In this document: positions 17,202 through 38,216 of the stretch, piece after piece
Position numbering within the stretch: the first letter of the stretch is position 1
Layout of the letters: each line of letters opens with the position of its first letter
Source of the DNA: Malassezia furfur
Taxonomy: Eukaryota
Length of the DNA stretch: 43,465 nt
Strand: one strand, 5' to 3'
Assembly: GCA_052055015.1 (NCBI GenBank)
Contig: JBQJIT010000045.1
Translations under genes and position numbers: made by a program
Notes under the pieces: model-generated
The model's input: the letters and a program-made list of their open reading frames with translations, nothing else
Database searches by the model: none
What the model was told of the DNA's origin: nothing

Positions 17202-17299
17202 GGCTGGAGTCTCCACTCGCGTTCCTCGGCCGAGGACCTGGGCGCCTCGGCGACGGGGGGCTCCCTTCTCGTCTCTAGATCGTATTTGCGTTTGGACAA

Positions 17300-17678
17300 A
17301 TGGTGCGTGGACGCGCGGGACGCTAATGCAGGGAGCCGGTCCTCGTTTCCCGTACCCCAAGGAGGTCTGGTCGCCTGCTGGTACGTGTGTGCACTGATAA
17401 ACAGGTGGCTGGTGGTCTCGGTACGCCGCACTTTCCCGTGCTCTTACACAGGCCGAAAAACTGGGCGAGCAACACGTTCGTCGTCGCGACCGGCATTGGC
17501 ATTGCGGCATACGGTCTCTGGAACTTGAGCAGTGAGCGCGAGGTATGTCGACGTGACTAACGTAGTTCCGTCACCAGGCGCCTCTGCACCCCATCCCCTC
17601 GCAGCTTGTGCGTGCTATCAACTAACCCAGTGGGCGCGCCAGTTCAAGGACGGCGAGCTGAAGGTGAAGCCCGAGTAG
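17300..17678 (+). CDS. 82-aa mitochondrial complex I accessory subunit, fungal NUUM-type; 6 exons, not in the ORF track
   Basis: Exons 17300-17302, 17332-17380, 17405-17420, 17452-17542, 17566-17607 and 17631-17678 give MGAGPRFPYPKEVWSPAGGWWSRPKNWASNTFVVATGIGIAAYGLWNLSSEREFRHQAPLHPIPSQLWARQFKDGELKVKPE. It has the family's YPK.VWSP.GGW..P.NW..NT motif and one TM helix. Confidence 0.88.
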
Positions 17679-17691
17679 ACAATAGAAGCAA

Positions 17692-34475: not shown

Positions 34476-35845
34476 ATGGCGTGGACGACGCCGGCGTACA
34501 CTGTGCAGCAGGATGCACAGGCCGTGCGTGTGCGCATCGAGTGCGCGGAAAGCAATGTACGTGGTAGACTCACAAAGGCGGACACAGCCCGCGCTGCAGC
34601 AGATGGTACGACGTTCGGCTGCTTCGTCGATCCACTCTACCTGCCGTACGTGAGAGTGCTCAGACAGCCTGAAATTCCCAGAGCCCGTGGGCGCCCTGGA
34701 AGTGATTGTGCCGCTCGACGCATCGAGCAGCGGCGAAAGTTATACTTACGATGCAACTCAGCGGACACTTGAGGTCAAGCTGACCAAGGCCGTGCCAGGC
34801 ACCCACTTCCCTGGGTTGGAAGAACTCCGACCGCAGCTCCTGTCGGATGTCGAAATGCATGCGTTCGAACGCGATGCAGAGCGGATGCAGCACGAGGAGC
34901 AGACAACAAGCACGGAGAGCACCTCGTCAGGACCCACCACAAATGCATCCAAGCCAACGTACCCTGTCGGCCTGCTGTGTCAGCCCCTGAATTCCAAAGC
35001 GTACGAAGACGTCGTCGCAGGTGGACGTGTCCCCTACCTGGACGTGGTAGATCCCCAGCATACCTCACCTGCCGACCGTCTTCGTGTTGCTCTCCGCCTA
35101 GAATGCGAAAAATGGGACGAGGGGATGTACCTGTATGTGCGCATCCTAACACAGTGATGCCACGGTGGATTTCGACGAGCAAGTCGCCGAACTCTTGCAC
35201 ATGCCCCTGCGCCTTGCTACGACTCACCCAAACATTGCATCAGGCCCACTTCCGAATGACGACCGCGCGCTGCTGTTCCTTGCTCAGCTCCTCTACGCTT
35301 ACCTGTACGAAGATCGTATGTCGCTGCACGATCCTACGCCCGAGTCGGCCTGGACGGTGATCAAGCTCACGCGCTGTCTTGCATGCTGGACAGACCCACT
35401 GGAAGGTACAGGTGACCTGCATCACACACTCTGTGCCTCCTTCCGGCGCACATTGACCTATCCATTGTACCGCAGCCTCGCGGCGTGTGCGCAAATCTGC
35501 CGAGATGCTACAGAACTCCTTTCCGAGTCACCACGCGATCGTATCCTGCATATACTGCACGCACTCGATGCCTGGTTTGCTCTAGCACCGACCGGCACTG
35601 GCCTTGCCGAGCAGACCACCACCGTGCTGTCGGTCGTGTGGGACCAGTGGATTGCGCCGCTCTCCACATGGGTCGCGCACGGAGCCACAGATGCGCACTT
35701 TGCGCAGCTGCGTGAGGCCTTTGCACAGGTCACATTCACGCCTGAGGTGCTCTCCGAGATTGAAATGCCAGGTGACTGGGACCTTGCCGCGCTGAACGCC
35801 GCGGCCGCCGAGGCCCGTGCGGAGGGCGAAGGCGCATTTGTGTAG
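34476..35845 (+). CDS. SHQ1: Shq1 H/ACA RNP assembly chaperone (CS + SHQ1 domains); introns 34557-34577 (21), 34646-34667 (22), 35133-35154 (22)
   Basis: TP.Y.V.QD, P.YLP|LKFP, LTKAVPGTHFPGL, KWDEGMYL|D, LYAYLYEDR...D.TPESAWTV.KL and RRTLTYPLYRS motifs. Confidence 0.9.
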
Positions 35846-35858
35846 TTTCTTCGTATGC

Positions 35859-37148
35859 ATGCTACCTCCACCTGCGCGGAAGCGTGCAGCGTCCAACGAT
35901 GCGCGCATCCTACAGCGACCGCGCGCTGAAGACGTGCGGCTCCCGGTGGTACTTGAGTACCACCGTAACATTGCACGGGCGACGGCCGTGGTGTGGGATG
36001 CAACGGAGCCCGTGCGGTGTGACGTCGCCCAAGGTACATTAACACTGCGTGCCGGCGAAGCATGCAATGTCCTGCCACTCGACTGGCCGCTGGTAGACGG
36101 CGTATACACAGGTGAGGAGCAGGACGGTGCACAGGTTGTCACGCTTCCTGCCCACACCTCGCCGCCGTTCGCGCTTGTACCACAGTCGCCGTGGCTGCAG
36201 TTCGCGTCGGAGCAGACACCGGTTCTGGCCTTGGCGTGCGCTGCGTGCGGCAGCACATTGATGCAATGCAGCGGCGCAGCGACATTGCGTGCTCTTCCTT
36301 CCGAAAACTGGGAAGAGCTCGTGGATGCGTGGATGTGCCATGGTGACCAGCGCTTGAATGCGAGTGTCGTTCAAGGACGTGCGGATGTCGAGCCATCACG
36401 CACGCCGGAGCTCGACCAGATTTGGGTTGGTTCACTGCTGTTGCGCATGAATAGCGCGCAGCTGATGCATGTGCACATTGCAGATGCCAAGATACCCGGG
36501 CCATGGGAGGTACGTTCCGGGGGGGTATTCCCACGGACCCGCAGAAAGCTCGCACTGGAAACCCACCGTGCGCGGCTGATACTAGGGTCCTAGATTTTGC
36601 ATTCCACATACGCCGCGGCGCAGAAGCCCCCCTGCGCCGTGGCCACAATGAATGCGACACTAACGCAGGGCGACGCATTCCCCGCTTCCTGTTCCCAGTG
36701 CTCAGCAGCGCTCGGGGCCGTGCCAGTCCGCGATGCGCCGAGCGCCGCGCAGCTGCTGCAGACGAGTGTGGTACCGGTGCCACGCACACTGTCCTACACG
36801 AACTATTTCTCTGAGATCCTTGCCAACTATCTGGTGGAACAGGCTGACCGGCACGCCGTACACCACTTCCTCATCCAGGCACTTGGTGCCGAACCCCAGC
36901 CCCGCCTCCTCGTCTGGGTCTTCCAGCCGATCGTCGAGGTGTGCACCACCCAGCGGATGGCCGTATGCAAAATTCTGTACCATACGAGCACGGCCCCCCC
37001 GCAGGTGCCCTACCACCCCCTCACGCTGCCGGCGGCGCAGTGCGATCTGCTCGCGCAACTGCTCATCGAGAGCAACGCACTGTACCCTGCGGCGCGCAAA
37101 AAACTCGCGCAATGGCATGTAGGATTTTTGCTGCGTACCCTTTTCTAA
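35859..37148 (+). CDS. IPA1: Ipa1/UBE3D-like (HECT_2) protein; 159-nt intron 36510-36668 hosting an H/ACA RNA
   Basis: CAAC..LRALPSENWEELVDAWMCH, a second CxxC after the intron, LLVWVFQP, KILY, and ESN..YP...W.VGFL. Donor GTACGT and CACTAAC-GCAG acceptor keep the frame. Confidence 0.85.
36535..36662 (+). ncRNA. Intronic box H/ACA guide RNA predicted to pseudouridylate U2 snRNA U42 (snR81-like specificity)
   Basis: Hairpin 1: GGACCC/GGGTCC lower stem with pocket GCAGAA + GATACTA, complementary to U2 UAGUAUC-[UG]-UUCU; degenerate H box AGATTT at 36592. Hairpin 2: TGCATTC/GAATGCG lower stem, pocket CACATAC + CACAAT, 12-bp upper stem; ACA at 36657-36659. Confidence 0.8.
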
Positions 37149-38095
37149 ATACGCTTCACCTTGGGCATCCCCGGCACGACCACCTCGCCCTCCACGGCGC
37201 GTGCCTCGACGCCGATCCGCGGCAGGAACGCCTGGTACCGGATCGGGTCGCGCGACTTGAGGTAGCGCAGGATCTTGGCGCGCTTGTGCACGAGCTTCGT
37301 CATCGAACGCCGGTTGCTGTTGTCCTTCCGCGCGCTGCCGAGGTGCTCAGCCAGGTTGCGGATGCGGTACGTGAGAATTGCCGCCTGCACTTCGGGCGAG
37401 CCGGTATCCAGCCCCTGTCCGTCGGGGCGCGCGCCAAAGTGCTGCACGATCCGCCGCGTGTTTTCCACCTGGATGCCCTTGCCGCTCGCATTGCGCAGGT
37501 CAAGGATGCGCGCAAGCGCGTCGGCGCTCTGCTGCTGCTCGGCTTCGCTCTGCTCGTGCTCGGCAGCAAGCACCTCGGCGCCCTGGTCACGGCCAACGTG
37601 GACGCTTGCGGCGTCCAGGACACGGTCCTCGGTCATGACGCGCGGCAGCGACTTGAACAGCGTGCGGCGGTCATTCACACCCAGACCGAAGTTGAGGCGC
37701 CGCGGGCCGCCGTACGTCGACGCCTCGGCATCGACCTGCGCGTCGTCCGGCCGCGCCGTGGGTTCCACCGGCACGAGCTGCCCACGCCGGTCCTCGGCGA
37801 GACCCCACACCTCCTCCTTCGAGAGGATGATCTTGGCGAGTTCCGAGTTATTCCAGTATGCGTAGCCCTCGTCGTTCAGCTGGTGCGCCAGAACCGGGTC
37901 CGGCTTGGACAGCTGGAAGAGGCGCTCCATAATTTCGTGCCGCTGCAAGTTGGCATTCCGGCGCAGACGCGCAGCACGCCGCCGCTTGCTCTCCATCACA
38001 GGTGCACTCGTGTGTATCGCTGCGATGCTTTCCCTCGGCAGCGCCGCGCGCGCGCCCAGCGCGGCCTGCGCACGCCCAGCGATCGCGCGGAACAT
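37145..38095 (-). CDS. MRPS28: Mitochondrial ribosomal protein uS15m
   Basis: R/A-rich presequence; RILDLRNAS; S15 core DTGSPEVQAAILTYRIRNLAEHL..KD..RR....LVHKRAKILRYLK. Confidence 0.92.
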   Translation of the reverse strand: MFRAIAGRAQAALGARAALPRESIAAIHTSAPVMESKRRRAARLRRNANLQRHEIMERLFQLSKPDPVLAHQLNDEGYAYWNNSELAKIILSKEEVWGLAEDRRGQLVPVEPTARPDDAQVDAEASTYGGPRRLNFGLGVNDRRTLFKSLPRVMTEDRVLDAASVHVGRDQGAEVLAAEHEQSEAEQQQSADALARILDLRNASGKGIQVENTRRIVQHFGARPDGQGLDTGSPEVQAAILTYRIRNLAEHLGSARKDNSNRRSMTKLVHKRAKILRYLKSRDPIRYQAFLPRIGVEARAVEGEVVVPGMPKVKRI

Positions 38096-38216
38096 GGTTA
38101 GGAACAAAGCCGACCTTCGCGTCACGTGACAAAGGAAGAAAGCGGCGCGCGGCGCTCGCTTGCAAGTTGATCAAAAACGCAAGCGTACGTGGGGGGTCCA
38201 GGTGCACTAACCGCAG

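Follow-up and report, generated by a model that had tools for sequence, protein, structure and literature searches.

At the end of one intron of Malassezia furfur, the last bases of an apparent small guide RNA are also the first bases of the intron's branch motif, which raises the question of whether guide and spliced mRNA are made at each other's expense or whether the overlap is a by-product of intron compaction. The intron lies in a gene of the IPA1/UBE3D family on contig JBQJIT010000045.1 of assembly GCA_052055015.1, within a stretch of 43,465 nucleotides (nt) that was analysed as a whole and is called the window here. The original prediction had seen in it a possible feedback switch, in which loading of H/ACA proteins on the ACA box excludes U2 from the branch site and the supply of these proteins sets the choice among three 3' splice sites. 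The explanation that we consider probable is a different one: the intron carries a genuine H/ACA guide for U42 of the U2 small nuclear RNA (snRNA), an old passenger of this intron; loss of a spacer in Malassezia fused the ACA box and its tail with the branch motif; and the upstream AG dinucleotides proposed as alternative acceptors go unused.

The IPA1/UBE3D intron contains a box H/ACA RNA

Judged by its matches to the HECT_2 profile (Pfam PF09814), the host gene is a member of the UBE3D/Ipa1 family. Both exons score above the profile's cut-off of 22 bits, exon 1 with 50.5 bits (E = 1.9e-13, profile positions 100-193) and exon 2 with 68.9 bits (E = 4.9e-19, profile positions 207-369), and the profile runs on continuously from one to the other. 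Exon 2 is 92% identical to the M. furfur protein CBS9595_001139, and an annotated M. furfur protein (P0001, starting MLPPP) has its junction ...GPWE|GDAFP exactly at 36509|36669. The Schizosaccharomyces pombe member of the family is named ipa1 in PomBase, and its deletion is listed as inviable (supplement of PMC8476143). The exons and splice signals are:

35859..36509 (+): exon 1 of the IPA1/UBE3D-like (HECT_2) gene, in the frame of the open reading frame (ORF), ending with the complete codon GAG
36510..36668 (+): phase-0 intron hosting the guide RNA, 159 nt or 53 codons, GTACGT ... CACTAAC-GCAG
36510..36515 (+): 5' splice site GTACGT, read from the sequence
36667..36668 (+): AG of the 3' splice site, 5 nt past the predicted branch A
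36669..37148 (+): exon 2, including the stop codon at 37146-48

The whole intron folds as two hairpins with internal loops at a minimum free energy (MFE) of -68.7 kcal/mol (z = -4.35), a stability reached by 0 of 200 shuffled sequences, and folds of its parts agree with the fold of the whole. The following elements were identified, the pockets and upper stem 2 from the folds:

36535..36590 (+): H/ACA hairpin 1; lower stem 36535-40/36585-90 (GGACCC/GGGUCC), upper stem 36547-77
36541-46 (+): hairpin 1 pocket, 5' strand GCAGAA
36578..36584 (+): hairpin 1 pocket, 3' (guide) strand GAUACUA
36592..36597 (+): hinge (H) box AGAUUU, an imperfect ANANNA, 14 nt past upper stem 1
36599..36655 (+): H/ACA hairpin 2; lower stem GCAUUC/GAAUGC, 36599-604/36650-55
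36612-23/36632-43 (+): upper stem of hairpin 2, 12 base pairs (bp)
36605-11 and 36644-49 (+): hairpin 2 pocket, 5' strand CACAUAC and 3' strand CACAAU
36657..36662 (+): ACA box (36657-59) and 3-nt tail CUA (36660-62); predicted mature 3' end at 36662
36658..36664 (+): branch motif CACTAAC, predicted branch A at 36663; 36658-36662 shared with the ACA box and tail

A single G separates hairpin 2 from the ACA box, which is followed by CUA. Counted from the upper stems, 14 nt lead to the H box and 13 nt to the ACA box; H/ACA guides hold the target uridine about 14-16 nt upstream of either box, and the window RNA shows this spacing. The succession of hairpin, hinge, hairpin and tail, with a pocket in each hairpin, was found both in the window and in three related loci from other contigs (L001, L003 and L041, see below), in whose folds elements of hairpin 1 recur; in L003 a C-G pair of the lower stem of hairpin 1 is replaced by U-A. 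The layout of the window intron RNA is thus that of a box H/ACA RNA. The positions originally given for the ACA box, the tail, the CACTAAC motif, branch A36663 and acceptor 36668 were all correct on reading the sequence, and the claim that the intron carries an H/ACA guide agrees with the two-hairpin fold and its z-score, with the ACA box and with the conservation described below.

The first pocket is complementary to U2's branch-site-recognition region

The pockets were paired by hand against nt 31-78 of the yeast, not the Malassezia, U2 sequence as printed in PMC4712673. The guide strand GAUACUA is complementary to U35-C41 of U2 (yeast numbering) over 7 bp, and the AAGA of the 5' pocket strand pairs with U44-U47 over 4 bp, giving 11 bp in total with U42-G43 left unpaired. 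This is the pocket that had been described as U2-complementary, and rightly so. According to passages of PMC6049503, a guide for the U2 pseudouridine at position 42 (Psi42) needs at least 8 bp, and the 5' pocket of the Saccharomyces cerevisiae guide snR81 pairs on both sides of U42-G43. With yeast U2 as the target sequence, pocket 1 of the window RNA follows the same rule, and we infer that its target is the U2 position equivalent to yeast U42.

The pocket resembles a branch site because it is complementary to the U2 segment reading UACUAAC and is hence itself like UACUA. Position 6 of the guide strand (36583 in the window, opposite A36 of U2) is A in most fungi (GAUACAA), G in locus L032 and C in L065, and is U only in Malassezia and the group of L041. 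Since this position is not U in them, most fungi avoid a full UACUA branch-site mimic within the intron, which might be a sign that cryptic branch sites are selected against.

The second pocket differs between Malassezia and other fungi. Three Malassezia sequences keep CAC on its 3' side and AUAC or AUA on its 5' side, which by hand pairing fits G32-G34 and G37-U40 of U2 around U35 A36 with 7-9 bp; the pocket may, on this weak fit, address U35 (Psi35). Elsewhere in the fungi (e.g. L070:2821-3106 and L041:2841-3107; L007-L080) the strands are an invariant 5' AACAA(C) and a 3' (G)CUAC. The CUAC strand and the two variable bases that follow it on the 3' side are able to pair with U2 G32-G37, and the AACAA strand matches U42-U45 only if four target bases are left unpaired.

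Related RNAs occupy the same intron in other fungi

Scanning metagenome contigs with an alignment of homologous proteins yielded 80 loci. A regular expression found the guide element in 69 of 81 sources, and four further loci (L018, L019, L023 and L024), seen by eye, carry it with a variant eighth base. Only the second hairpin was recognised in L020, and the protein match is contiguous in L005 and L006, i.e. no intron is present at that position; the five remaining loci end before the intron and are uninformative. Of the 76 informative fungal metagenome loci, 73 therefore carry, in the corresponding intron of this gene, an H/ACA RNA whose first pocket is the same. Across fungi the ends of the exons are homologous (...GGSYILF..., then about 20 residues, then GT). 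Outside Malassezia the RNA is longer (236-286 nt), again in the phase-0 intron of this gene.

In an alignment of 41 distinct non-Malassezia sequences (A4), the elements AAGAA, GATAC.A, TCC, the As of the H box (A.A), AACAAC, GCTAC and ACA were invariant in all 41. RNAalifold predicted 22 pairs for these sequences, 13 of which show double compensatory changes. Most H boxes of the non-Malassezia relatives are canonical (e.g. AGAUGA), and the Malassezia-like loci L003 and L001 have AGAUGC and AUAUCC, respectively. If the fungal ipa1-intron H/ACA RNA is defined by its host gene, its phase-0 intron, a GGAC./.GUCC lower stem and the strands AAGAA and GAUAC.A, the window RNA belongs to it, its 5' strand GCAGAA retaining AGAA. 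Hairpin 2 of Malassezia cannot be aligned to that of other fungi, and the top of hairpin 1 is variable. The homology between the Malassezia RNA and the others appears to rest mainly on position and guide strand, and is thin at the level of sequence.

A possible counterpart exists in fission yeast. Under 'ncRNA in intron', PomBase lists ipa1 (II:1076179-1079027, reverse) together with the entry SPNCRNA.498 (II:1078083-1078182, reverse), for which its description is 'non-coding RNA (predicted)' (PMC8476143, supplementary Table S8). From its position, SPNCRNA.498 would be the S. pombe equivalent of the window RNA, a comparison of location and not of sequence; its identifier was not found in the literature searched.

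The position of the intron can also be read from proteins. A protein search returned 27 homologues, 24 of which were fetched, and 22 of these 24 are ORF calls that continue past exon 1 into V-R or V-C (GTN CGN/TGY). Because these residues are the translated 5' splice site, the intron position is held across many Malassezia-like sequences. The C-terminal tails of the public ORF calls P0003-P0026 (...DQQKAS..., ...LILRVLD...) are mostly guide RNA translated as protein, so that ORFs running into the intron constitute a trap for gene prediction. The LILRVLD tail of P0006, P0017 and P0020 was at first taken to stand for UACUAAGG; as CUACGAGUC in L003 gives the same peptide, no AG is claimed there. 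P0003 resembles a chimera, its N-terminus being M. furfur-like and its C-terminus that of a different species.

A probable spacer loss behind the fusion of ACA box and branch motif in Malassezia

ORF continuity proved too noisy for intron prediction in this GC-rich window, and the distance from CTAAC to the next AG was used instead. On both strands of the window, the next AG follows CTAAC at 5 nt in 7 of 15 cases and at 6 nt in 3 of 15, that is, in 10 of 15 altogether. For CTGAC the respective counts are 12 and 4 of 57, and control pentamers had 0-4 cases at each of the two distances. The branch adenosine in the window normally lies 5-6 nt from its acceptor. A small gene at 17291-17680 (+) illustrates this, with four introns of about 29, 24, 23 and 22 nt (17303-17630) whose CTRAY stands 5-7 nt before the AG, one of them reading GTATGT-N8-ACTAAC-GTAG. 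The host intron is 5-7 times longer than such neighbouring introns.

CACTAAC at 36658-36664 is the only good branch motif of the host intron, and the ACA box with its 3-nt tail overlaps it, much as originally described: A36659 is the last A of ACA and at the same time would pair with U2. The same RNA sits in the same intron of two Malassezia-like pairs of loci, L001 (= L002) and L003 (= L004), and the mitochondrial S15 gene that follows the window gene also lies downstream of ipa1 in L001, L003 and L004. The intron of L003, like that of L004, ends ...GGT-ACA-CTA-AC-CAG(CAG), which is the fusion seen in the window; in L001 the end reads ...GCA-ACA-TGT-ACTAAC-CGCAG, where ACA plus 3 nt adjoins the branch motif and shares no base with it.

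Outside Malassezia the two elements are far apart. The distance from the first A of ACA to the closest in-frame acceptor candidate is 27/66/108 nt (minimum/median/maximum), and to the AG nearest the conserved motif W..C.CG it is 50/73/108 nt; these values come from 51 distinct non-Malassezia rows out of 54, three of which have no W..C.CG motif. A separate YTRAY motif stands between ACA and acceptor in 49 of the 51 rows. In Malassezia, 12 nt separate ACA from exon 2 in the window; L003 has 11 or 14 nt between them, and L001 has 17 nt. The spacer on the 5' side is likewise shorter, 24-26 nt in Malassezia versus about 37-76 nt in other fungi. Because ACA and exon 2 are about 66 nt apart (median) in the other fungi, the overlap is a derived compaction rather than the ancestral state, and it reads as a Malassezia-specific spacer loss after which the tail of the RNA would serve as the head of the branch motif.

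The MFE folds of the three Malassezia introns also pair bases of the 5' splice site with bases at or next to the fused (or, in L001, adjoining) ACA box and branch motif (36513-36516/36662-36665 in the window, 3170-3175/3370-3375 in L001 and 3185-3188/about 3367-3371 in L003). This helix encloses the intron around the guide RNA; it has only 4-6 bp, and GUAC is self-complementary, so that it may be due to chance.

On the reading that we prefer, the intron of this M. furfur-like fungus would give rise to an RNA of about 129 nt (36534/35-36662), whose first pocket would direct pseudouridylation of U2 at the equivalent of yeast U42, which is the job of snR81 in S. cerevisiae. The guide would have been carried along in the ipa1 intron across the fungi. 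In Malassezia, with its tiny introns and branch adenosines 5-6 nt from the acceptor, the spacer between RNA and branch site would have been deleted, leaving the ACA box and the 3-nt tail to serve at the same time as the branch motif's 5' portion. Splicing would use branch A36663 and acceptor 36668, the lariat would then be debranched, and exonucleases would remove about 24 nt on the 5' side and 6 nt on the 3' side until they reach the H/ACA particle.

Several observations weigh against this reading. The H box of the window, AGAUUU, has U in place of the final A of ANANNA. Neither the window RNA nor its fungal relatives match Rfam: at the gathering score or E <= 1 the window gave no match, with three chance hits (E >= 2) around the intron, and 12 related loci gave none, L070 having a single chance match to a C/D family at E <= 1. 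Folded as whole introns, L001 and L003 do no better than shuffled sequences (z = -0.94 and -0.26). The 5' side of pocket 1 provides only 4 bp, counted with yeast and not Malassezia U2. Profile hidden Markov models built from the 41 non-Malassezia sequences barely detect the window RNA, the best match being that of the guide-plus-hinge profile to 36573-36595 (E = 0.057), and the profiles of the 5' part, of hairpin 2 and of the full length did not match it. Finally, P0006, an M. japonica-like read-through ORF, has E-T-N-A-G in the region of the box, which, read at the protein level only, translates back to ARA and not ACA.

Possible competition for the shared bases

If the same bases serve two machineries, H/ACA loading (Cbf5 and Naf1, with Shq1 as chaperone) might exclude recognition of the branch site by BBP and then U2 on any one transcript, with no part for the upstream AGs. 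Either splicing would come first or some transcripts would be diverted to the guide at the cost of mRNA, and the supply of H/ACA proteins would tune IPA1 through splicing efficiency or intron retention rather than through acceptor choice. The structural premise is reasonable. The PUA domain of Cbf5 reads ACA together with the lower stem, and U2 small nuclear ribonucleoprotein (snRNP) proteins contact the 20-25 nt upstream of the branch site, which here correspond to the 3' half of hairpin 2, its lower stem filling the stretch immediately upstream of the branch. A36659, a base of ACA, would also be the first base of ACUAAC to pair fully with U2. Simultaneous occupancy of the shared bases by Cbf5 and by U2 or BBP therefore appears implausible on structural grounds, in line with the mutual exclusion originally proposed. 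Passages of PMC9351541 report that in yeast H/ACA proteins bind co-transcriptionally to precursors that are still unspliced and do not depend on splicing for this, from which it follows that on Malassezia transcripts both machineries would have to follow one another or compete.

Two Malassezia lineages retain the fusion, in a third the elements adjoin, and SNORD2 in EIF4A2 provides a precedent for a small nucleolar RNA (snoRNA) that masks the branch point of its host intron (PMC10324135). The exact overlap is, however, not genus-wide, as L001 has ACA-TGT-ACTAAC, and compaction alone would yield the arrangement in a genome with introns of 22-29 nt. Moreover, with the S. pombe ipa1 deletion inviable, strong interference should be selected against. 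On balance we regard competition on individual transcripts as unlikely, if worth keeping in mind. We hold a step beyond it to be more doubtful still: that guide-particle assembly and U2 binding take turns on the shared bases and that each IPA1 transcript becomes either mRNA or guide according to which arrives first. If true, this turn-taking would form a loop that refers back to itself and connects U2 modification, the supply of H/ACA proteins (SHQ1 lies 13 nt upstream) and the output of a 3'-end-processing factor. The sequence by itself supports the premise of competition; regulated acceptor choice is left unsupported by it, and not refuted.

A very improbable alternative concerns the excised lariat. 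The branch A directly follows the guide's predicted 3' end, 1 nt away, and a bound H/ACA particle might hinder debranching, in which case the guide would persist partly as a stable, inactive lariat snoRNA that acts as reservoir or sink. Parts of PMC8609340 describe stable snoRNA lariats in vertebrates that bind core proteins and do not guide modification. Those described there tend to have C branch points, and an A branch serves Dbr1 well as a substrate; in addition, a guide whose pockets are what is conserved has to mature in order to act.

Upstream AGs are poorly conserved and probably unused

Two AG dinucleotides upstream of 36668 had been proposed as regulated acceptors:

36584..36585 (+): frameshifting upstream AG, formed by the last guide base and the first G of the lower stem
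36591..36593 (+): in-frame TAG; its AG at 36592-93 is the second one proposed, and the hinge box AGAUUU begins with it

On this proposal, H/ACA occupancy would send the spliceosome to 36585 or 36593, with CTGAT as an alternative branch site. The arithmetic holds: acceptor 36585 would give an intron of 76 nt and a frameshift, and acceptor 36593 one of 84 nt that adds 75 nt, or 25 codons without a stop, the ORF 36594..37148 being open in the frame of exon 2. A branch-like CTGAT followed by an AG is also present (GCTGATACTAG at 36575-36585), and its A36579 lies 6 nt before the G of the AG at 36584-85, which is the local spacing of branch and acceptor. Such pairs are at chance level, however, with an AG 5-6 nt after the A in 4 of 48 CTGAT in the window compared with 1/48, 7/59, 2/64 and 6/78 for control pentamers. 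The match to U2 is poor as well, since GGCUGAU forms two Watson-Crick pairs and three wobbles with it, and the CT of CTGAT is buried within the upper stem. There is no good branch motif ahead of 36593. Its in-frame position is not special because four of the seven AG dinucleotides in the intron (those ending at 36548, 36593, 36623 and 36626) share the frame of exon 2.

The two AGs are not conserved as a pair even within Malassezia. The equivalent of 36584-85 is missing from L001 (CTACGG) and L003 (CTACGA), and that of 36592-93 is missing from L001 (CATATC) and present in L003 (TAGATG); L001/L002 thus have neither AG and L003/L004 are without the first. Two annotated proteins, P0001 of M. furfur and P0008 of M. 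cuniculi, have their exons joined exactly at the equivalent of 36509|36669, with the acceptor downstream of the RNA, and the M. caprae model (P0009) resumes after the same end of exon 1, its exon 2 start being unaligned. The 25-codon insert occurs in 0 of the 27 listed homologues, which is weak evidence as these are predicted proteins. Bound H/ACA proteins would, moreover, cover the upstream sites too. A switch among acceptors 36585, 36593 and 36668 is therefore unsupported, and we rate it slightly below even the lariat hypothesis. We infer that the upstream AGs and the CTGAT and TACTA sequences are side effects of U2 complementarity and of the hinge box and go unused. That the intron is merely GC-rich sequence folding by chance, its U2 complementarity a coincidence, is practically negligible despite the silence of Rfam and the shuffle-like whole-intron folds of L001 and L003, given the same pockets, boxes and stems in the same intron at 73 of 76 informative loci (plus hairpin 2 in L020), the compensatory changes and an intron 5-7 times longer than its neighbours.

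Comparison with known guides

In S. cerevisiae, snR81 is an independent gene and not an intronic one. Its 5' pocket guides U2 Psi42, with base pairs to either side of U42-G43 (passages of PMC6049503), and the 5' pocket of the window RNA pairs with the same U2 bases. The two RNAs nevertheless have no detectable sequence relation, the snR81 family (Rfam; HACA_26 of the fungal snoRNAome) giving no match around the intron at the gathering score or at E <= 10, and the 3' pocket of snR81 targets U1051 of the 25S ribosomal RNA (rRNA), which the 3' pocket of the window RNA does not fit. The snR81 sequence family has been followed within Saccharomyces only (PMC5824354). The 2017 and 2018 literature examined named no guide outside Saccharomyces for the pseudouridine conserved in U2 at yeast position 42 (S. 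pombe 41).

Vertebrate SCARNA4/ACA26, SCARNA8/U92 and SCARNA15 and S. pombe pugU2-43/44 resemble the window RNA as H/ACA guides for U2's branch-site-recognition region. SCARNA4 restores Psi42 in snr81-delta yeast, as stated in excerpts of PMC5733568, and double guides for two U2 sites are described in part of PMC5473140. These guides differ in having other host genes, and the passages concerned report no fusion with a host-intron branch site. The snR191 RNA in the NOG2 intron differs in guiding rRNA and not U2. SPNCRNA.498 shares with the window RNA its place, as a predicted non-coding RNA on the same strand within the orthologous S. pombe ipa1 (SPBC1734.10c; PMC8476143, Table S8), but is a 100-nt placeholder annotation without class or target. 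SNORD2 is an intronic snoRNA as well; it hides the branch point of its host intron in EIF4A2 and alters splicing, giving an isoform subject to nonsense-mediated decay (PMC10324135; reviewed in PMC11028025). It differs in being a box C/D RNA that pairs with the downstream intron, whereas in the window the box itself shares bases with the branch motif, and no alternative isoform is documented for the window intron.

Taken by its sequence, the window RNA is a previously unclassified, conserved intronic H/ACA guide with a predicted target within U2's branch-site-recognition region. If this is true, it would be a candidate for the missing fungal U2 Psi42 guide, housed in one intron across fungi and including the uncharacterised SPNCRNA.498 locus. 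The Malassezia version would represent a natural limit case for how near to a branch site an H/ACA box can lie, and its shared bases make splicing-independent H/ACA assembly testable, as assembly must either wait for splicing or compete with it.

Neighbouring genes

SHQ1, which encodes a chaperone for assembly of the H/ACA enzyme Cbf5, lies directly upstream on the same strand (34654-35858; PF04925, E = 1.9e-20), its stop codon at 35843-45 being 13 nt ahead of the IPA1 ATG (35859). The order SHQ1-IPA1 is kept in L001-L003, the Malassezia-like loci with enough upstream sequence, and SHQ1 was not found beside ipa1 in the other 76 loci within the flanks examined. We treat this linkage as a coincidence. 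P0002, a database protein of M. japonica, fuses SHQ1 with HECT_2 and skips about 28 residues at the intron, probably through an annotation error. Downstream, the IPA1 stop codon (37146-48, +) overlaps that of the convergent gene for mitochondrial ribosomal protein S15 (ORF 37145..38170, -; PF00312), and the 3' untranslated region of each gene must therefore be fully antisense to the coding sequence of the other.

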